DNA from: a virus
Lineage: Duplodnaviria; Heunggongvirae; Uroviricota; Caudoviricetes
IMG/VR virus record: IMGVR_UViG_2802429248_000002
DNA length: 41,518 nt
Reading direction: 5' to 3' (one strand)
Part shown: in pieces, positions 3,377 to 35,989 of the stretch
Numbering within the stretch: the first letter of the stretch is position 1
Layout of the letters: every line of letters begins with the position of its first letter
Position numbers and translations under genes: made by a program
The notes under the pieces: generated by a model
What the model was told of the DNA's origin: nothing
Database searches by the model: none
Seen by the model: the letters and a program-made list of their open reading frames with translations, nothing else

Positions 3377-6133
3377 TTAGCTACTTTCAAGCATTGCAAG
3401 ACGTGATTCTATTTTTTCGATTCTTCTACGCAAATAAGCTGACTCAAGCCATAAACACTGGTCAGTACGGATACCCCACCTATTTCCAGCCTTGCAAACC
3501 AGAGTTCGCTCTTCTGTTTCGTATTCTTCTTCCATCTCAATTTCGACGCCATCCACAACTTTAGTGATCATCCTTACCGCCATCACTGGCGCGTATTTAT
3601 CATCCCATTCATCGTAACAGAGAAGGCCAAATCTGGTTCCATCAATCCCATGCGCGAGGAAAGTGTCTCTCACTTGTTGTGCTATAACACCAAAATGCCA
3701 GCGGGCACCATCTCCCTTTTCCCTGACGGCATCAAGCCAGCGAAAAGCTACAATCCTGATATCTCCCCATGCATCCAGAATTGCATCACCTTCATAACCA
3801 CGAGACATATACAAGCTGAGCTCACTTGTACTAATCGGTTCACTTTTTTCTCTACCATCTGATGTGTTTATCGAACCGTTCGCAGAATAAACCTGTGCCC
3901 ATCTAAATGATGGTGCACCAAGAGATTTGCTGTTATCAATAATTGGTGAAAAATTACCTTTAATAGCAATATTTCCAGAGTCGCCGAATATATTAATAAC
4001 TGCAGAGTCATCACCATGGTTTTTTACGCTTAAGTTTCTTGATGAAATATTTATATCTTTGTTATATCCACTAACATTAATCCATCTTTTACCATCAATG
4101 TGATACCCGTAAATATTTCCGTTTGATTGTTCGTCAGGTGACTCTCTAAGAACAATAGCATCTACTCCAGACGACCATTGTATTTTTGTATCTGTAGGCC
4201 TCCAGTTCTTTATAATGAACGAACCATCAGTAAACTCCGTTTTTATTTGTCTATTGTCTACAAATGCGTCTCTTGGTTTAAACTCACTTGTGTTAACGCT
4301 GCTCTGAAGATCAGAAGCAAAAAATCTAAGATTTCCTGTATAACCCTTAGTCTCGGTCAGGTTATACGCAATCATAATTCCATTTTCAAACTCAGATGAT
4401 GTTATTTTAACATCACGGCAATCACCAAAAATGCAATTTCCTTTATCAAATGTTGTTTGAGCTTTGAATTTATCAAACCTTAAATTACGAACAGGGAAAC
4501 CATCAACCTCTAATGCAAAGGATGCAGGAAGGCCAAAGTATTCTGATGGCTTACCTGATGTATGATCAAGAGTAGTGGCTACTGTATTCTCAAAAACAGT
4601 CCCGCTAAAATTATTACCAATTGACGGAAACCTGATTACACTTATTGTACCTTGTATTTCAGGAGAAATACCAGATAGTGTGATGTTAGCTCCATCAAAT
4701 GATGCATCTGAATACGTATATACTGATTCACTGCCAGCAATTTTAAACTGTTTAACTGAAGTTATTCTCATCGACTTTTTATGTTTAAATGTCACTGAGC
4801 TTTCAGTATTACTTACAAGATCAATCTGAGGGCTATTCCTTATCGCGATCCCTGACTGGACATAAACGTTATTAAAGTGCGTTTTTTCAGGATTTCCCTT
4901 CATTGAAAGGCTCCCGTCATTTTCTGTCAGTAGTAGTCCTTTTACCCTCCAATAGCCGACAATCTGTACGTTATCAATAACTGAATCACAGCTATCGTAT
5001 ACATGCAACCCTATATCCCAGTCATCACCCAATGAATAAGAATCAGGGTTATTGTATCCTTCAATACCATTTTTACTTACCATTATTCTCAGGTTGCGTA
5101 ACTGTGATGCCCTGTTGATACTAACAGCTACGCTCATGGCTTTTGGTGTAGCAGGAGTAACACCTACAGAATCTTCATTTGTAAACTCAGTGAACTTACA
5201 AGATATCCCTTCAACAATTTTAACTGGTCTTTCATTAGAGATGTTAAAAAAATATTTGTTTTTTTCTCCATCACCAGTAAATACAAGATGGGTTCCTTTA
5301 CTCCAACTTTTTAATAATCTTTCAGGCGCTGGTCTATATGTATCCCAATAATCAATGCCATCACCAATTAAAGACACTCCAGGAGGCACATCTATGTTCT
5401 TAGAAATCATCCATTTACCTGCAGGTATTCTAACGACACTTGCACCAGAATTTATCGCATTAATTAACCATTCAGACGCATCAACTTCAAAATTTAATGC
5501 AGCATATCTTTGCTCAAACGGAACAAAATCAAGAGCGTTAACGTTATCCCGCATCTTATCCTGGAACGTTCGGTATACTGCTCCAGAACCATACTGAATA
5601 AACCAACCAAAACCACCAACAACTCCGGCGATTGCAGCATCAACATAATTGCGCATTGATCGATTATTTACAGCATCCTGCTCAAGTGATGGATCTGCAA
5701 GGTTAGAAATTTTGTTTTGCTTTGCATCGTAATATTTTGCAAGCAAAGATGGTTTCATCAATGCACGTCTGAACCATCCAAAACATTGCTGGATCAGCAT
5801 CGTCAGATAGTCAAAGGCATCTTCATGCACCTCGGGGAAAAATTTTCCCTGATTACGAAGATCAGTCTCCTGCACCACATCAAGCACACGATCTATCGTA
5901 ATTCGCCATCCAGCAGCAAGCGGCGACGGAAGAACAACAGAACCGCCACTATAAGTGCCCGCCCCTGTTACCGTATAACCGGTATCCAGAACCAATTCTG
6001 TTACGTTCCCGTTCAGGTCAGACACCTGAACAACCAGGTCGGATTTTTTGAAAATACGGAAGGTATACGGAAATGATGTCGTAGCTCCGTTACCTGTGTA
6101 TTCGTTGTGGTCAACTTCGGTTGAGACCGTCAT
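3377..6133 (-). CDS. Tailspike protein with C-terminal intramolecular-chaperone-like domain
   Basis: 918 aa. N-terminus MTVSTEVDHNEYTGNG..TSFPYTFRIFKKSDLVV resembles the conserved particle-binding head of epsilon15/phiV10-type tailspikes (memory). Central region is Asn/Ser/Gly-rich as in beta-helix depolymerases. C-terminal ~150 aa (..TSDGREK..) resembles the self-cleaving chaperone domain (peptidase S74-like) of endosialidase-type tailspikes. Confidence 0.8.
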   Translation of the reverse strand: MTVSTEVDHNEYTGNGATTSFPYTFRIFKKSDLVVQVSDLNGNVTELVLDTGYTVTGAGTYSGGSVVLPSPLAAGWRITIDRVLDVVQETDLRNQGKFFPEVHEDAFDYLTMLIQQCFGWFRRALMKPSLLAKYYDAKQNKISNLADPSLEQDAVNNRSMRNYVDAAIAGVVGGFGWFIQYGSGAVYRTFQDKMRDNVNALDFVPFEQRYAALNFEVDASEWLINAINSGASVVRIPAGKWMISKNIDVPPGVSLIGDGIDYWDTYRPAPERLLKSWSKGTHLVFTGDGEKNKYFFNISNERPVKIVEGISCKFTEFTNEDSVGVTPATPKAMSVAVSINRASQLRNLRIMVSKNGIEGYNNPDSYSLGDDWDIGLHVYDSCDSVIDNVQIVGYWRVKGLLLTENDGSLSMKGNPEKTHFNNVYVQSGIAIRNSPQIDLVSNTESSVTFKHKKSMRITSVKQFKIAGSESVYTYSDASFDGANITLSGISPEIQGTISVIRFPSIGNNFSGTVFENTVATTLDHTSGKPSEYFGLPASFALEVDGFPVRNLRFDKFKAQTTFDKGNCIFGDCRDVKITSSEFENGIMIAYNLTETKGYTGNLRFFASDLQSSVNTSEFKPRDAFVDNRQIKTEFTDGSFIIKNWRPTDTKIQWSSGVDAIVLRESPDEQSNGNIYGYHIDGKRWINVSGYNKDINISSRNLSVKNHGDDSAVINIFGDSGNIAIKGNFSPIIDNSKSLGAPSFRWAQVYSANGSINTSDGREKSEPISTSELSLYMSRGYEGDAILDAWGDIRIVAFRWLDAVREKGDGARWHFGVIAQQVRDTFLAHGIDGTRFGLLCYDEWDDKYAPVMAVRMITKVVDGVEIEMEEEYETEERTLVCKAGNRWGIRTDQCLWLESAYLRRRIEKIESRLAMLESS

Positions 6134-6307: not shown

Positions 6308-6328
6308 TTATTGCATGGAGAAGATAAG

Positions 6329-6586
6329 ATGCAGCAGTATCACTATCCACTGGAAGACGGATTTACCGAAAGGATTCACACGCCGGGAGGCGTCAGGTCA
6401 CTGGTGGAGGGATCGCACTTGATGAAATTACTCCGGGATCTCGATAAGGATGGATTTAATGTCGATGGCCCACTTGCCGAACTGACTGCACTGATTAACT
6501 ACGTCACCAGCTCACAGATGTCTATGCGGGATCTGCAAACACATCTCGACTATTGTGCCGAACAATTACGAAAACAAACCCGGTAA
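6329..6586 (+). CDS. Small SOS-regulated protein, antirepressor C-terminal-domain-like (Tum/Ant-like candidate)
   Basis: ATG 6329 with GGAG 8 nt upstream; 85 aa. About half its residues match the C-terminal ~80 aa of the Bro-N protein at 7732-8418 (shared LxxDG.DV.G..AELT...........RD.QTH). Confidence 0.6.
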   Translation: MQQYHYPLEDGFTERIHTPGGVRSLVEGSHLMKLLRDLDKDGFNVDGPLAELTALINYVTSSQMSMRDLQTHLDYCAEQLRKQTR

Positions 6587-6608
6587 ATTTAAAGGCCGCA
6601 AGAGCGGC

Positions 6609-7337
6609 CTATCGTTTCGCTTTGTGCTCATCCCAGCACGTTTTGCACCATGCCATTAAGCCGTCCGCATTTTGATTATTAGGGTAAAAGCTGGTTCGTT
6701 TTCTGCGGACATTACAAATTGGGCACCACTTCATATGGCGTGTATTCTTTGGGCCATCGAGACACCTTGCACACCATTTAGTCAATCCATCTGGATTTTT
6801 TGACGATTTCCTGAATTTTTCATATGGAAGGTTTATTCTGCATCGCAAGCACTGCTTGCTACCACTTGAAACTCTGTTAGCTGATTCTTCTTTTGGCGGC
6901 GATACAGAAGGTATTCTTGCTGGCTCTGATATTGCCTGAGGTGCTTTTTTAGATGACTGAGACGATATGTCATCACCAGGGAATCTTCCATGATATGCCG
7001 GACGCGTTGACACTCCAGGTGGAATCTCAGCTGTAAACGGCTTTGGCTGAATCAGTTGCCTCTCTTTTGCTAACTCCTGCTGTTTATAATATGTCTGGAT
7101 TACCGCACTATCATAAGCAGGAGGTGCGGAAATATTAGGCGCATTACCTCCAGTTTTTTGAAACTGAGTAGAGGTGTGTTCTATCACCTGTGTACGATTA
7201 ATCGTTATCTCCCCATCTTCGGTCTTTATCGTTTTGTTATGATTAACGACCGTACGATCAGAGATCTTAGTCTTGTTCTGGTTGATAACGTAAATAATCA
7301 CCGCAACCACACCAACAACTATCCAGAAAACTTCCAT
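6609..7337 (-). CDS. Membrane-anchored protein with tandem Cys-rich (zinc-ribbon-like) C-terminal repeats, unknown function
   Basis: 242 aa. N-terminal TM helix (EVFWIVVGVVAVIIYVI), Pro/Ser-rich linker, then two repeats of CxxC..(F/Y)..DGL..WCxxC. Operator palindrome about 20 bp upstream of the start codon. Confidence 0.55.
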   Translation of the reverse strand: MEVFWIVVGVVAVIIYVINQNKTKISDRTVVNHNKTIKTEDGEITINRTQVIEHTSTQFQKTGGNAPNISAPPAYDSAVIQTYYKQQELAKERQLIQPKPFTAEIPPGVSTRPAYHGRFPGDDISSQSSKKAPQAISEPARIPSVSPPKEESANRVSSGSKQCLRCRINLPYEKFRKSSKNPDGLTKWCARCLDGPKNTRHMKWCPICNVRRKRTSFYPNNQNADGLMAWCKTCWDEHKAKR

Positions 7338-7357
7338 TGCTTTTCCTCACAATAACA

Positions 7358-7465
7358 TTACCTTAAAGGTAATATCTTGCTTTCAGGTGATCAAGCGTTA
7401 AACGCAATCAACCAAATACGGTTGATTTTAATGTTTCTTCGCGCTTATCATTACCTTTACGGTAA
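7358..7465. promoter_or_regulatory. Two operator palindromes (TTACCTTAAAGGTAA 7358-7372; TTACCTTTACGGTAA 7451-7465) in the divergent region between 6609-7337 and 7732-8418
   Basis: On the minus strand TTGATC-17 bp-TACCTT precedes the first palindrome, giving a promoter whose -10 is overlapped by the operator. A TTGATT (7422-7427)-17 bp-TTATCA (7445-7450) plus-strand promoter abuts the second palindrome. Confidence 0.5.
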
Positions 7466-7558
7466 ATTTACATAGCACTCCTCTTGTGCCATAGTAATCG
7501 GGCACTGGCAAAATCCAGTGCCGGGATTGGCGTCCCGGATTACTACAGAGGCACATAT

Positions 7559-7578
7559 GCCGCATAAGCGGTTTTTTT
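7559..7578 (+). terminator. Short intrinsic terminator/attenuator-like hairpin in the leader of the Bro-N gene
   Basis: Stem GCCGC (7559-7563), loop ATAA, GCGG, then seven T (7572-7578); preceded by an 8-bp stem hairpin GGCACTGG-CAAAAT-CCAGTGCC (7501-7522). Confidence 0.4.
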
Positions 7579-7731
7579 ATGTGTAAAGCGCACCTATTCT
7601 ATGGTGGGCTGTGTGGGGGCACCGAAAGGTGCGCCGGGTCCTTTGTAGCCGGTTACGCCAACCCTGCACAGTTCACCACCAACCGATTGGCGTCGGTAGT
7701 GGTGATTAACCTAACTACAAAGGTGATCACT

Positions 7732-8418
7732 ATGACTGCTAACGTAACCCCATCTGTTTTTCATTTTGAATCAGAAGCAACCATTCGAGCCATTGTTATT
7801 GATGGAAATCCTTGGTTTGTTGCCAAAGACGTTATTAAAGCTCTTCAACTGACAAACCCCACTATGTCAATAAAATCTCTTGATGATGATGAAAGGGCTA
7901 AATTTAACTTAGGCCGTCAAGGCGAAACCAATATTATCAACGAGTCAGGCCTCTACACACTGATCCTCCGCTGCCGCGATGCGGTGACACCAGGCACTAT
8001 CCCATACCGCTTTCGTAAATGGGTTACAGGTGAGGTTCTTCCTCAGATCCGCCGCACCGGAAGTTACATTAAAAACTCGCTCCCGCAAGAAGAACGCATA
8101 AAGATGGTTGCCGACCAGGTAGCCAACGCCACAGCATCAGCAGTGATGCAGGCAATGAAGATAGAGAACAAAACCTACAGCGCCCCACTAAAGCCCGGCT
8201 ACCGCAGTCTGATTCACTCGCCGTCTGGTGTTCTCGGCCTGACGGAGAACTCACTGCTGATGAATCTGCTGAACCAGTTACAGGACGACGGGCACGACGT
8301 ATCGGGCGCGGCGGCGGAGTTGACCACCATGTTCTGCTACATCGTCGGTGTGAACAAATGCCTGCGTGATATCCAGACGCACGCGGAGTACATCAACGAC
8401 AAAGCAGGGTTCTTCTGA
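7732..8418 (+). CDS. Bro-N domain protein with antirepressor-like C-terminal domain
   Basis: Start taken at MTANVT (ATG 7732, aaaggtga upstream); the longer track ORF begins in a structured leader. N-terminus (FHFESEATIRAIVIDGNPWFVAKDVIKALQLTNP) matches the Bro-N signature; C-terminus is paralogous to the 6329-6586 protein. Confidence 0.7.
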   Translation: MTANVTPSVFHFESEATIRAIVIDGNPWFVAKDVIKALQLTNPTMSIKSLDDDERAKFNLGRQGETNIINESGLYTLILRCRDAVTPGTIPYRFRKWVTGEVLPQIRRTGSYIKNSLPQEERIKMVADQVANATASAVMQAMKIENKTYSAPLKPGYRSLIHSPSGVLGLTENSLLMNLLNQLQDDGHDVSGAAAELTTMFCYIVGVNKCLRDIQTHAEYINDKAGFF

Positions 8419-8475: not shown

Positions 8476-8889
8476 TTATAAAGATGACTGATATTTTACA
8501 ACTCTGTTCATGGCATCTTTTTTCACCGAGCTGATATCAGTTCTTATTTTGGCTTCGTCATTACTGTTTATCATGCTATTAACTTTTTGCACTGACATGC
8601 CGTTTCTTTCAGCCATTGCACATACAGCAGCATCGTATGAAGAACTCGCTGCGATGGATATCACCTTGTTACACTCAAACACAGCACCTTCAGCAATATC
8701 AGATGCCGATGATGCTGGCTTGGTATAAGTCTTGACGTAGTGATCAATACAACTATCCTTCGCCGTCTTGGCAAGAGAAAAATCCATTTTAACTTTGTCG
8801 CAATATGCCTTATCAACACCGTCATAAACATCATAGGATGTCGAGCAAGCGGATATCAAAAATACCGATAACAGCAATAATTCCTTCAT
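8476..8889 (-). CDS. Phage-encoded lipoprotein (moron), candidate superinfection-exclusion or surface factor
   Basis: 137 aa; signal peptide MKELLLLSVFLISAC with lipobox; six further Cys; gene looks AT-rich by eye; tacked on 9 bp after the stop of the large internal virion protein gene. Confidence 0.55.
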   Translation of the reverse strand: MKELLLLSVFLISACSTSYDVYDGVDKAYCDKVKMDFSLAKTAKDSCIDHYVKTYTKPASSASDIAEGAVFECNKVISIAASSSYDAAVCAMAERNGMSVQKVNSMINSNDEAKIRTDISSVKKDAMNRVVKYQSSL

Positions 8890-8898
8890 TGTTGTTCC

Positions 8899-11373
8899 TT
8901 ATTGCGGAGTGACATCCTGAGGTCGCCACCAGTATGTCTGGTTAAACTCTTTCTTCGAACGTTGCTCCATTTTACGCAAATAGCCTGGTGAAAAATACTC
9001 CTGCATCTGGTTAAAGATCATATGATCGAGAGCCGCCTTCAAGTACCAGAGATTCGCACCTGGCATCAGCCCCTTCCCCAGCTTAACCAGATCACCACCA
9101 GTCTGCTCACTCTTCCCTTCCACAGCATTTAGCGGTATGCCCTGAGCTATCTTCACTACGTCATCAACCAGACCAGCTACCGGGCCAAGCATCGACGCCA
9201 GCGCGCCGCTCCCGTACCTAGTGTGGTCAGAGAAAAGAAAATCACCGTACAACCCAGCCCCGCCACCTTTTAAAAATGCATTTATCCAGAATTTAACCAT
9301 GTGGTCACCGGTCATTTCCTTTGGATTTCTCCCATTAATAAGATCAGTAATCTGCATGGAAAGAGCACCAAGCATGGTTGTGCTTGCTAAAAACGTTGCT
9401 ATATATGCTGCACGCCCACCAGCAGACGGCATACCCATAGCGCGTGACCAGTGACGCATAACAACCGAGATAGGGAACGATTTAAACAGGAAAACACTTC
9501 TCGTTAATTCACCTTTCCATGTTCCACGCTGAAGACCAGACCCTACGAACATCTGCTCACGTGCGCCCGGTGTAATAACAGCCATATCAACTTCTTCAGT
9601 TACGGCACCGAGCAGTTTACGCATTGCCTCAAATTTCACGCGTTCAGGCTCACCAAGATGTTTAACTGCTGAATCAGGGATACGCATAATGCTTTCCGGT
9701 GTCAGCATCGTATTATTACCGTTCCCCCAGTCCTCCTGTTGCGCCAGCTTCCATACGCTCCAGTCTGTGTCAGTAATCCCTTTACTTTTCAGGATACGAA
9801 AATCAGAGTCATCGAGGCTACGAAGGTCTGGTGTCCGTGACACTACTTCTCCCAGGCTTCCCATCATGGTTACGCCATAGGCGCGCTTGTGCGCATCTGA
9901 CCATGCTGTAAGCCCACTGGCACGCATTACCGCCGTTGCCGCCCAACGAGACACAGACGGCCCCATATTATCCATCGCCCAGCGGTTAACGCTGCCAAGT
10001 AGAGATTCCATCGCCAGGCCAGCGCGGCGCGCCCGCGCAAGCTCAGTACGGTTCGTTGGGTCCATAGCTTCAAGCTGGTTGCGAAATAACTGGTTCATTG
10101 GAAGGTTGGTAACCTTCGCAGACAGATACATGGTTCCAAGATCAGAGAACGATGACAGCAACGCGGATCCGAGTCTGCTGGCAACCAGCCAGTTGCGGAT
10201 ATTGTCAGACCATCGCGCGATGTGCGGATTCGCTACAGGCTGTGTTTTTCCGGAAATAAAGTTGTACAAGTTCTCTGTTTTGTTCGCCAGACGCTCGACG
10301 CTACCGGTTTTACTCGGGTTAGCTGTTGCCGTTTCTGCCTTAACCTGATCAAGAAGGGAGCGGAAAACATGATCGGGGTTTGGACCATATGTTTCCACCA
10401 GAGCAATATCTTTACTGATACCTTCCAAGTGACCGACCATGATTTCCCATAGAGAGCGATCACCATAAAGTTGTTGATATTGGAGATAGGAATCTGCATC
10501 TTTGAAATGTATCTGTCGTGATGCATTACCACGGTTAGCACGTGCGCCGGAAATTCGCATTCCGGTATCAGTAAGCTTATTCAGCCCACCAGTAGCGATC
10601 GTGTTATAAGCCTCTCCAAGAAATGCAGACAACTCGGCATCGTTCATCAGTTGTCCATCGGCTCGGGTATAATATTTGCGATCCAGCTTACCTATAACAT
10701 CGCCAACCCACTTATCCTTTGATACCGCCCCAACCTTTTCCATAGAATGATGTTGAGGGATCCCCCAGTTTTCGAGATAGCCAATGTCCCCACCAGCATC
10801 ATTAAACCGGCGGCGCAGCAGCTCTGTAACTTCTCTCCACGCCTTAGCACCTTTTCTTGCTTTAGCATTGCCAGTATTTTGCCCCCGCATTTCATATACC
10901 AGGTCACGTACGCCCGCTTCATCTTCAAACAGACCAAAAAAGCGAGGATCAACTGCTTCGAATGCCTCCTGCAATTGACTCAATGCATAATCACGGGTGG
11001 CTTTTGTTCTGGATTCAACAGAGAGGAAATTAGATTTACCGTCTGCATTAAAAGCTATAGTACGGTTAAGAGCTCCAAGTTTCCCATCAGCCCCTTGATA
11101 GCTATTGATAAATTTATCCAATCTCTGACGCGCGGCTATAGTGAGAGCCACACGACGTTTCTTTAATGCCGCTTCTCGCTGTAATTCTTCAGATGCCAAT
11201 TGTGCTGCTCGATATAGCCGCTCTGATTCGGAAAGTTGTCTCCACGACATCGGGTCATCACGAGCAATGGAGCGCATATTTCGATAAATGCGGTCTTCAA
11301 TGTTCTGTATTTCTCGCGCCGTTAACGTGCGCTGCGCCGCCTGCTGGACCGCTTGTATACATTCCTGTCTCAT
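8899..11373 (-). CDS. Large internal virion (core/ejection) protein, gp16-like by position
   Basis: 824 aa, last large ORF of the internal-protein series preceding the tailspike module; assignment by size and synteny only. Confidence 0.5.
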   Translation of the reverse strand: MRQECIQAVQQAAQRTLTAREIQNIEDRIYRNMRSIARDDPMSWRQLSESERLYRAAQLASEELQREAALKKRRVALTIAARQRLDKFINSYQGADGKLGALNRTIAFNADGKSNFLSVESRTKATRDYALSQLQEAFEAVDPRFFGLFEDEAGVRDLVYEMRGQNTGNAKARKGAKAWREVTELLRRRFNDAGGDIGYLENWGIPQHHSMEKVGAVSKDKWVGDVIGKLDRKYYTRADGQLMNDAELSAFLGEAYNTIATGGLNKLTDTGMRISGARANRGNASRQIHFKDADSYLQYQQLYGDRSLWEIMVGHLEGISKDIALVETYGPNPDHVFRSLLDQVKAETATANPSKTGSVERLANKTENLYNFISGKTQPVANPHIARWSDNIRNWLVASRLGSALLSSFSDLGTMYLSAKVTNLPMNQLFRNQLEAMDPTNRTELARARRAGLAMESLLGSVNRWAMDNMGPSVSRWAATAVMRASGLTAWSDAHKRAYGVTMMGSLGEVVSRTPDLRSLDDSDFRILKSKGITDTDWSVWKLAQQEDWGNGNNTMLTPESIMRIPDSAVKHLGEPERVKFEAMRKLLGAVTEEVDMAVITPGAREQMFVGSGLQRGTWKGELTRSVFLFKSFPISVVMRHWSRAMGMPSAGGRAAYIATFLASTTMLGALSMQITDLINGRNPKEMTGDHMVKFWINAFLKGGGAGLYGDFLFSDHTRYGSGALASMLGPVAGLVDDVVKIAQGIPLNAVEGKSEQTGGDLVKLGKGLMPGANLWYLKAALDHMIFNQMQEYFSPGYLRKMEQRSKKEFNQTYWWRPQDVTPQ

Positions 11374-25311: not shown

Positions 25312-25388
25312 GTGGCATTAGCTCAGTTGGACAGAGCAACCGCCTTCTAAGCGGTTGGTCGCAGGTTCGAATCCTGCATGCCACGCCA
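25312..25388 (+). tRNA. tRNA-Arg (anticodon UCU), phage-encoded
   Basis: Cloverleaf readable by eye: acceptor GTGGCAT/ATGCCAC, D-arm GCTC-AGTTGGACA-GAGC, anticodon stem ACCGC/GCGGT with loop CTTCTAA, variable TGGTC, T-arm GCAGG-TTCGAAT-CCTGC, discriminator G, encoded CCA. Confidence 0.9.
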
Positions 25389-25591: not shown

Positions 25592-25606
25592 TTACCTTAA
25601 AGGTAT
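25592..25606. promoter_or_regulatory. Operator palindrome TTACCTTAAAGGTAT overlapping the RBS/-10 region of the cargo gene
   Basis: Ends 4 nt before ATG 25611; a consensus TATAAT hexamer (25604-25609) overlaps its right arm. Confidence 0.45.
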
Positions 25607-35404: not shown

Positions 35405-35989
35405 ATGAAAAGTATCCAGGACGTCCGCAGGCAAAATCTCAACGACTTGATCGACCGTGAATTCAATGGTGTTCAGACGCGGATGGCTGAAAAACTTGGA
35501 ACTCAGGCAAATCTGGTAAACCGCTGGGCTCTTGGCAAGAAGGTTATCGGCGACCAGGTTGCGCGAAAAATTGAAGCTGCCGCCAATAAACCCCGTAACT
35601 GGCTTGATATCGATCGCTCGCTTTCTCAGGAAGGTTTTCAGCCTGTCGGCCCGAGTGATATAGGTCAGCTGGCTGCTCACAACCTGGAACGCTGGATGAG
35701 CGAAAGCCGCGACCTTTCAACGCAGGGAAAACTACACCGCGCATCCGGCGTCGCCCAGGTGACAATCAGCCGCCTGTTAAACAATGAGGTCAGCGTTTCC
35801 ATTTCCACCCTGGAGAATGTTGCATCCGCATTCGGGCGTCATGGCTATGAATTACTGATTCACCCGCACGACCCTGCGACTATCAACTATGACCGCTCGC
35901 GCTACGCATTGTTACCCGAAACCGAGAAAGCAAAGATCGAAAGTTACATTGAATTTGTCATCAACCAGAACGAAAAAAACAAACAATAA
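35405..35989 (+). CDS. XRE-family repressor-like protein with two HTH motifs and no S24 autocleavage domain (putative immunity repressor)
   Basis: 194 aa; HTH 1 GVQTRMAEKLGTQANLVNRW, HTH 2 ASGVAQVTISRLLNNEVSVS; no GDSM/Ser-Lys peptidase signature; flanked by operator clusters on both sides; terminator immediately downstream. Confidence 0.55.
   Translation: MKSIQDVRRQNLNDLIDREFNGVQTRMAEKLGTQANLVNRWALGKKVIGDQVARKIEAAANKPRNWLDIDRSLSQEGFQPVGPSDIGQLAAHNLERWMSESRDLSTQGKLHRASGVAQVTISRLLNNEVSVSISTLENVASAFGRHGYELLIHPHDPATINYDRSRYALLPETEKAKIESYIEFVINQNEKNKQ

Follow-up and report, generated by a model that had tools for sequence, protein, structure and literature searches.

The gene at positions 6609..7337 (minus strand, stop codon included) of IMG/VR virus record IMGVR_UViG_2802429248_000002, a stretch of 41,518 nucleotides referred to here as the window, encodes a 242-residue protein in which a predicted membrane anchor is joined through a long tether to two zinc fingers, and across the Gammaproteobacteria its homologues accompany phage immunity genes, lying directly after the cI repressor gene or in an antirepressor island. 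The window itself, judged from its backbone, is an Escherichia coli prophage of the Uetakevirus type (epsilon15/phiV10-like). We tentatively read the protein as a factor of superinfection exclusion or defence that would act on the cytoplasmic side of the inner membrane, and give this reading a probability of about 0.4. The finger module is known, and so is the concept of membrane-bound accessory proteins that occupy immunity slots; their combination, and the scale of the association with cI, are new as far as we could find.

Architecture and topology

The open reading frame (ORF) begins with ATG and matches phrog_6762, a PHROGs family of unknown function, over its entire length (E 5.7e-150, residues 1-242 on profile positions 1-242). 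An N-terminal transmembrane helix, a Pro/Ser-rich linker and two repeats of a CxxC..F..DGL..WCxxC unit had been recognised in the original prediction, and all three are borne out by AlphaFold2 (AF2) models and by comparison with homologues. The single predicted transmembrane helix covers residues 3-21 (7275..7331, minus strand) with a predicted local distance difference test (pLDDT) score of about 90 (88-94), and is preceded by M-E and followed by N-Q-N-K-T-K. Next comes a juxtamembrane β-hairpin (residues 29-52, 7182..7253, minus strand; strands 29-39 and 42-52, pLDDT about 74) with the consensus T-x-K-T-E-D-G-E-I-x-I-x-R-T-Q, which very probably lies at the membrane surface. Among 30 close homologues, all from Enterobacterales, M1, N21, T39 and G42 are invariant, and E43 and T49 nearly so. 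The tether that follows (residues 53-158, 6864..7181, minus strand) is rich in Pro, Ser and Gln and mostly disordered (pLDDT 44-67, about 50), with one short helix at 77-91. It is variable and poorly conserved, the tether being about 105 residues long here and the distance from helix to first finger 51-144 amino acids across the 77 full-architecture family members on which charge, spacing and tether length were measured.

The C-terminal domain (residues 160-242) consists of two zinc-finger units and is modelled with confidence (pLDDT above 90) from an alignment of 30 sequences; the C-terminal 88 residues modelled on their own gave a pLDDT of 89. Unit 1 (residues 161-195, 6753..6857, minus strand; pLDDT above 90) follows the pattern C163-x2-C166...F175...D183-G184...W188-C189-x2-C192, and unit 2, which together with a basic C-terminal helix covers residues 203-242 (6612..6731, minus strand), the pattern C205-x2-C208...F217...D225-G226...W230-C231-x2-C234. 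The two are homologous to one another in identical register (35% identity, E 1e-7). All eight Cys residues and both Trp-Cys pairs are invariant in the 30 close homologues and in 33 distant ones of 24-43% identity, and the spacing is constant in the 77 members, with a unit span of 30 residues and a gap of 12 between units. The distant homologues also keep the overall layout: M-E, a hydrophobic helix, a polar stretch rich in Asn, Lys, Ser and Thr, a hairpin of the T-x-x-G-E type, a variable tether and two units. Conservation and spacing of the Cys residues lie far beyond chance, and this confirms the architecture as real. Two findings had been named beforehand as speaking against the original prediction, loss of the Cys spacing in homologues and clear homology to a structural or lysis protein; the spacing is strictly kept, and no such homology was found.

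The residues on the N-terminal side of the helix have a median charge of -1 and the 15 residues on its C-terminal side a median of +2, the C-terminal flank being the more positive in 67 of the 77 members. By the positive-inside rule this places the bulk of the protein in the cytoplasm, and we predict a bitopic inner-membrane protein with its N-terminus out and C-terminus in, a periplasmic N-terminus of two residues and cytoplasmic fingers. Such a topology agrees with the presence of Cys4-Zn sites and with the homologous nuclease-linked fingers described below, which belong in the cytoplasm. The finger pair is strongly basic (net charge about +14, isoelectric point (pI) about 10; +7 to +19 over about 82 residues and pI 9.1-10.3 in the family), a charge that is compatible with nucleic-acid binding, though not proof of it.

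Stc1-like zinc fingers

The original prediction did not recognise the repeat as a member of any named family and described it as a zinc ribbon. Profile and fold searches with the finger domain instead identify the units, at the level of sequence profiles and predicted models, as a known named module, the Stc1-like (PF12898) zinc finger of treble-clef/β-β-α type found in association with HNH nucleases. The Pfam Stc1 profile scores 21.1 bits against the protein (E 4.7e-4), just under its gathering cut-off of 24.8 bits, and the eight conserved Cys residues fit the tandem CxxC...CxxC arrangement of Stc1. In PHROGs the units match N-terminal parts of families labelled 'endonuclease VII', 'HNH endonuclease' and the like, the N-terminal region of phrog_1035 ('endonuclease VII') matching unit 1 (E 2e-11) and phrog_2633 matching unit 2 (E 1e-9). 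A match to phrog_5558 (Lar-like restriction alleviation, E 2.7e-9) is confined to residues 201-241 on profile positions 7-47 of 130, and thus to the finger alone.

An exhaustive profile search of 1.84 billion representatives returned 1757 proteins at E<=1e-3, about 60-80 of which have the full architecture; the remainder carry only the unit, often in 3-10 copies per protein. When 65 such finger-only relatives were compared with Pfam, 34 matched Stc1 (down to 3.4e-18), 18 DUF6510, 9 HNH, 9 HNH_5 and 8 Endonuclease_7, and some bear helicase or winged helix-turn-helix domains. Foldseek comparison with viral models (BFVD) gave 39 matches at E<=1e-3, many of them unnamed; most of the named ones come from phages and giant viruses and are HNH endonucleases or carry the labels 'beta-beta-alpha-Me family' or 'Stc1 domain'. 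A search of the PDB by sequence with the finger domain produced just a spurious RING match (E 0.97).

In both AF2 models the second Cys pair (WCxxC) opens a helix (residues 190-194 and 232-241), which makes each unit a treble clef; a classical zinc ribbon has both pairs on β-hairpin knuckles. The knuckle-plus-helix Cys4 geometry is common to the Zn-stabilised β-β-α-Me cores of Hpy99I (3fc3) and PacI (3m7k). Unlike those enzymes, the units have no catalytic His: the corresponding position carries the invariant pair D183-G184 or D225-G226, with no conserved His in either unit, and no match to the Pfam HNH or Endonuclease_7 profiles was found on the protein. An active HNH nuclease is therefore ruled out, only the Zn-scaffold fold being common, and the fingers would be binding modules, perhaps degenerate fingers, and not enzymes. 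The closest counterparts are the arrays of Stc1-like units (PF12898, also DUF6510) at the N-terminus of phage and giant-virus HNH, HNH_5 and Endonuclease VII proteins, with which the protein shares the tandem unit CxxC-x(8-9)-F-x(7)-DG-x(3)-WCxxC and the predicted fold. It differs from them in having no nuclease or helicase domain and exactly two fingers, joined to a membrane anchor and tether.

Two relatives (P0103 and P0158) carry the two-finger C-terminal domain on other N-termini in place of the membrane anchor; judged by eye, one N-terminus is J-domain-like (...YKYLSHKYHPDKNP...) and one Cys-rich and WhiB-like. Fusion to these alternative N-termini suggests that the finger pair is a portable targeting module. 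At two loci of Acinetobacter type (L103 1046-1934 and L131 2620-3351), the gene after cI is a separate membrane ORF of about 100 amino acids, and next comes a two-finger protein without an anchor of its own (N-terminus MKKLIKFIGSIF...), and anchor and fingers appear to be divided between two genes.

Gene neighbourhoods and distribution

A survey of gene neighbourhoods in homologues, which the original prediction had proposed, was based on a second alignment, of distant members; a first scan had given almost only near-identical E. coli copies. Loci from exact-protein look-ups, phage records and pattern scans were dereplicated at 80% identity of the encoded proteins, leaving 35, and their neighbours were identified with Pfam and seeded phmmer searches. 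The gene adjoins a cI-type repressor with helix-turn-helix (HTH) and Peptidase_S24 domains at 15 of the 35 loci: in ten of these it lies 12-63 bp downstream of the repressor gene in the same direction, a slot like that of rexAB, in two a small membrane ORF stands between, and in three the genes are tail-to-tail. Twelve loci are epsilon15-type islands between tailspike and internal proteins, eight of them with an antirepressor within 1 kb and one, in Acinetobacter, with an Arc-like gene preceding. Bro-N/P22AR or Rha antirepressors of other prophages are the neighbours at two loci, and other contexts account for 6/35, among them a degraded island and insertions, in reverse orientation, within tail operons of siphoviruses. 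The association with immunity genes is thus strongly supported. The cassette of the window type is inverted relative to the other epsilon15-like loci, which fits an autonomous unit. Directly downstream of the homologue in an Edwardsiella piscicida prophage (L102 4743-5308), and adjoining the integrase gene, are two small ORFs whose N-terminal sequences look HigB/HigA-like by eye; if correct, this would be another accessory module in the slot.

Full-architecture members, at least 77 diverged ones in all, were found in Escherichia, Serratia, Providencia, Edwardsiella, Yersinia and Aeromonas, as well as in Acinetobacter, Haemophilus, Pseudoalteromonas, Neptunomonas, Marinobacterium and Oceanobacter, and in the phage collection the carriers are temperate only. 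Among 5426 complete E. coli genomes, 531 have the marker gene of the neighbouring gp19-like protein and 133 (2.5%) the cassette, all 133 copies being chromosomal, so that about 25% of E. coli prophages of the Uetakevirus type carry it. The Prokaryotic Genome Annotation Pipeline (PGAP) labels the product 'hypothetical protein'. PADLOC-DB 2.0 returned 0 families at E<=1, NCBIfam no meaningful match, and a literature search no paper on the phrog_6762 family.

A self-contained cassette under a repressor-type operator

Nucleotide comparison of the segment 6300-7700 finds Escherichia phage TL-2011b identical at 96% over the whole length, and matches to phiV10, ZX5, PAS61 and other Uetakeviruses confined to the flanks. 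Homology to phiV10 stops at 6586 and restarts at 7443; the cassette is therefore 856 bp long (6587..7442), present in the window and TL-2011b and replaced by about 24 bp in phiV10, one of the otherwise about 95% identical phages that lack the gene. The shared backbone of phiV10 and the window marks the latter as a temperate epsilon15-like podovirus of E. coli. In TL-2011b the record annotates only a misc_feature; a pseudogene was considered there and ruled out by an intact 242-residue ORF. The original prediction had placed the gene in an accessory slot between the tailspike gene and the operon for internal proteins, opposite in orientation to both of its plus-strand neighbours (6311-6586 and 7729-8418), and both statements hold.

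A GC-rich hairpin resembling an intrinsic terminator (6593..6610, minus strand) lies directly 3' of the stop codon, and a conserved Shine-Dalgarno sequence, GAGGA (7344..7348, minus strand), is read 6 nt 5' of the ATG. Further upstream is the operator-type palindrome TTACCTTAAAGGTAA (7358..7372), centred 28 nt 5' of the ATG and overlapping the putative -10 element and transcription start of a candidate weak sigma-70 promoter, TTGATC-17-TACCTT (7366..7394, minus strand). In 30 distinct variants of the upstream region, nothing but single changes is seen from TTGATC to the palindrome. Of the promoter under operator control that the original prediction assigned to the gene, the operator is well founded and the promoter less so: the candidate matches 7/12 consensus positions, and a consensus scan at 9/12 reported none for the gene. 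Beyond it, between the gene's promoter and the divergent isrK/C4/ant promoter, stands a conserved hairpin, AATCAACC-N6-GGTTGATT (7406..7427), with conserved arms and a variable loop in the 30 variants. On the plus strand it resembles a terminator, probably one that insulates, and it may shield the isrK/C4/ant promoter from antisense read-through. Operator, Shine-Dalgarno sequence and terminator together support a self-contained, independently transcribed cassette.

The motif TTACC-N5-GGTAA occurs at 15 intergenic sites throughout the window (3009, 6238, 7358, 7451, 24975, 25592, 28530, 28548, 32942, 33004, 34950, 35287, 35335, 36047 and 36108) where 0.82 would be expected, and not one of 100 shuffles gave as many as 15. 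The gene for a 194-residue two-HTH repressor (35405-35989), the counterpart of phiV10 gp40, has a pair of sites on either side. One site lies at the start point of a strong rightward promoter, TTGACA-17-AATTAT (36080-36108), another within the spacer of a leftward promoter (35304-35276), and others precede the gp19-like gene (6238) and coincide with the isrK/C4/antirepressor promoter (7451; arms fixed and spacer variable in the 30 variants). Since the sites flank the repressor gene and cover early promoters, we infer that the palindrome is the operator of the immunity repressor, and the 15 sites look like a dispersed operator regulon of the P1 C1 kind. At the gene under study, a position over the -10 element and start site of the candidate promoter would mean repression. 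In the sister phage ZX5 a gp40-type repressor was shown to repress lytic genes, and the same study confirms the role of the antirepressor and gives no definition of the operator (PMC9782041); we found no paper that does. The same motif stands 25-40 nt 5' of the homologous gene in Serratia prophages, and a different palindrome, TTAACC-N5-GGTTAA, takes the equivalent place in a Providencia prophage. In phiV10 a site with one mismatch lies 40 nt 5' of the O-acetyltransferase gene (oac), which is annotated as acting in superinfection immunity.

A possible role in superinfection exclusion or defence

Exclusion or defence has repeatedly proved to be the role of genes directly after cI or beside antirepressors. 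Examples of the slots are those of lambda rexAB, downstream of cI, of P22 sieA, beside immI, and of the gene for the N-terminally anchored lactococcal Sie2009, between the repressor and integrase genes, while HK97 gp15 is encoded by a tail-operon moron and excludes superinfecting phage. We favour exclusion or defence for the present family because exclusion or abortive infection is what the classical genes of cI operons and of the immI side do. Its members occupy the same genomic slots as these examples and are likewise small accessory membrane proteins of temperate phages whose presence varies among close relatives. They have no sequence or fold similarity to them, the E. coli copy bears a repressor-type operator, and to our knowledge none of the four examples has zinc fingers. 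Features of the superinfection-exclusion class that the protein matches are its encoding by temperate phages and its predicted membrane location.

In the mechanism we envisage, the helix would anchor the protein and the flexible tether would hold the finger pair under the membrane, where the fingers would take hold of what an incoming phage delivers at the cytoplasmic face, be it nucleic acid or an ejected protein. Capture would stop the entry or establishment of the rival phage, with expression in the E. coli phage gated by the operator of the prophage repressor. A narrower form of this proposal, which we consider rather unlikely, is a 'DNA trap' in which two nuclease-derived, catalytically dead fingers on a leash would seize the leading end of the injected genome, or its pilot proteins, where the entry channel opens into the cytoplasm, with helix and hairpin organising the assembly there. 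If true, the targeting module of a nuclease would have been repurposed as a membrane-bound immunity effector and placed in the cI operon by temperate phages of many Gammaproteobacteria. Exclusion in the broader sense, if true, would add a mechanism at the cytoplasmic face of the membrane and a case in which a zinc finger associated with nucleases has become an effector in its own right, and would be relevant to phage-therapy host range in E. coli lineages with Uetakevirus prophages. The family is widespread, absent from defence databases and annotated only as hypothetical, and the logic of anchor, tether and binding module within a single small gene makes the proposal cheap to test.

Several points weigh against exclusion or defence. 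The operator palindrome at the putative promoter recurs on the early promoters beside the repressor gene, and the E. coli copy may thus be off in stable lysogens, a behaviour that would fit an early or induction function better than classical exclusion expressed by the lysogen. Sharing its operator with the early and antirepressor promoters, the gene may be switched on soon after infection or upon induction, which keeps roles in the phage's own life cycle and in modulation of the lysis-lysogeny switch under consideration; the one-mismatch site before oac of phiV10 weakens this caveat without removing it. The earlier description of the gene as a host-interaction or defence moron holds in part: the cI or antirepressor neighbours found elsewhere are in its favour, and repression in stable lysogens, if the operator brings it about, would be atypical for a lysogenic-conversion moron. 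DNA binding is inferred solely from the company that the domain keeps and from its charge, the founding Stc1 domain is a protein-interaction module, and non-specific binding of DNA by a basic protein at the membrane would extend to host DNA. Neither PADLOC, NCBIfam nor the sequence search of the PDB gave a match that would point to such a role, and no paper on it was found.

Abortive infection differs from blocked entry in that the fingers would sense phage nucleic acid or protein, upon which hairpin and helix would oligomerise, depolarise the membrane and kill the cell before the invader matures, as with lambda RexAB or S. aureus PdpSau. The cI-adjacent slot equals that of rexAB, and the helix and juxtamembrane hairpin, with M1, N21, T39 and G42 invariant and the N-terminal layout kept in distant members, are conserved far beyond the needs of a mere anchor. 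A lone helix that spans about 19 residues and lacks a polar face would form pores poorly, and the missing PADLOC match counts against abortive infection as well; we hold it to be unlikely, while noting that sequence alone does not distinguish it from entry-blocking exclusion. A membrane-anchored abortive-infection protein of a prophage is reported in PMC10127798.

We find it just as unlikely that the protein serves the phage's own life cycle, either as a tether that holds phage DNA, or an intermediate of replication or packaging, at the membrane soon after infection or induction, or as an aid to genome entry or establishment. Phage phi29 offers a precedent in p16.7, a membrane-anchored DNA-binding protein. 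Like p16.7, the protein combines an N-terminal transmembrane anchor with a cytoplasmic basic binding domain of nucleic-acid type, and the operator shared with early promoters suggests co-expression with the early genes and the antirepressor operon. Unlike it, the protein belongs to an accessory cassette linked to immunity genes, p16.7 being of a different fold and the product of an early, replication-organising gene of a virulent phage. The gene is also dispensable, since phiV10 and about 75% of the Uetakevirus prophages of E. coli do without it; it moves between unrelated phage types and positions, and in ten lineages it lies within the cI operon and would be expressed while the phage genome is quiescent.

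As a modulator of the lysis-lysogeny switch, the protein would use its fingers to bind other proteins, and would sequester a repressor, antirepressor or host factor at the membrane, or compete for FtsH as lambda CIII does. Steady adjacency to cI, Arc-like or antirepressor genes is what such a modulator would show, and Stc1-type fingers can be protein-interaction modules. The copies in siphovirus tail operons and in the degraded island have no switch gene nearby, however, no co-varying partner gene was seen, and the strongest domain relatives are linked to nucleases and not to regulators, all of which makes this role distinctly improbable. A secreted or periplasm-facing protein with its N-terminus as signal or type II anchor, its eight Cys residues in disulfides, and the envelope, or incoming phage in the periplasm, as its target would fit the hydrophobic segment and the Cys content in principle, yet it is very improbable given the missing positive n-region (only M-E precedes the helix), the positive C-terminal flank in 67/77 members, the absence of a visible signal-peptidase motif and the occurrence of the finger in cytoplasmic nucleases; charge distribution and domain company led us to reject a cleavable signal peptide likewise.

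Two further candidates were rejected. HxxxCxxC is the defining motif of the ZAS class of anti-sigma factors; it is absent from the sequence, and the protein has the opposite topology to such factors. A role in lysis, or as a spanin, was discarded on the grounds that the gene lies outside the lysis cluster and that the protein has no similarity to lysis or spanin proteins.

The surrounding island

In the window the cassette is preceded by the tailspike gene (3377-6133, minus strand) and the adjoining ORF for an eps15p19-like (gp19-like) protein of 91 residues (6311-6586, plus strand), and followed by the gene for a Bro-N antirepressor (7729-8418, plus strand; real start about 7729) and that for an 824-residue internal protein (8899-11373, minus strand). 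The equivalent stretch of phiV10 reads tail fibre gp25, eps15p19-like gp24, Bro-N 'anti-immunity' gp23, small ORFs and the 824-residue gp20. Directly 5' of the antirepressor gene, and in tandem, are an isrK Hfq-binding RNA (7502-7578, plus strand; Rfam 76.8 bits) and a C4 antisense RNA (7597-7683, plus strand; 79.5 bits), a P1/P7-type immI layout within a podovirus. An immI-like antirepressor region carrying isrK and C4 RNAs is the more fitting description of the island. Many Stx phages share the isrK/C4 stretch (about 190 bp) at 78% conservation, and most of the records shown leave it unannotated or list hypothetical proteins only.

The eps15p19-like protein is homologous to the C-terminal domain of the adjacent Bro-N antirepressor (41% identity over 78 residues, E 4e-16), and may represent such a C-domain on its own, modulating or mimicking the antirepressor. 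Between the antirepressor gene and that for the 824-residue protein lies a 137-residue ORF (8476-8889, minus strand) with a lipoprotein-type signal (MKELLLLSVFLISAC) and zero matches in Pfam or PADLOC. Different small ORFs occupy its slot in phiV10, and we regard it as a candidate second accessory gene of the island and another candidate for exclusion. Elsewhere in the prophage a tRNA gene (25312-25385, plus strand; Rfam, 73.3 bits) stands about 200 bp from the operator-type palindrome at 25592.

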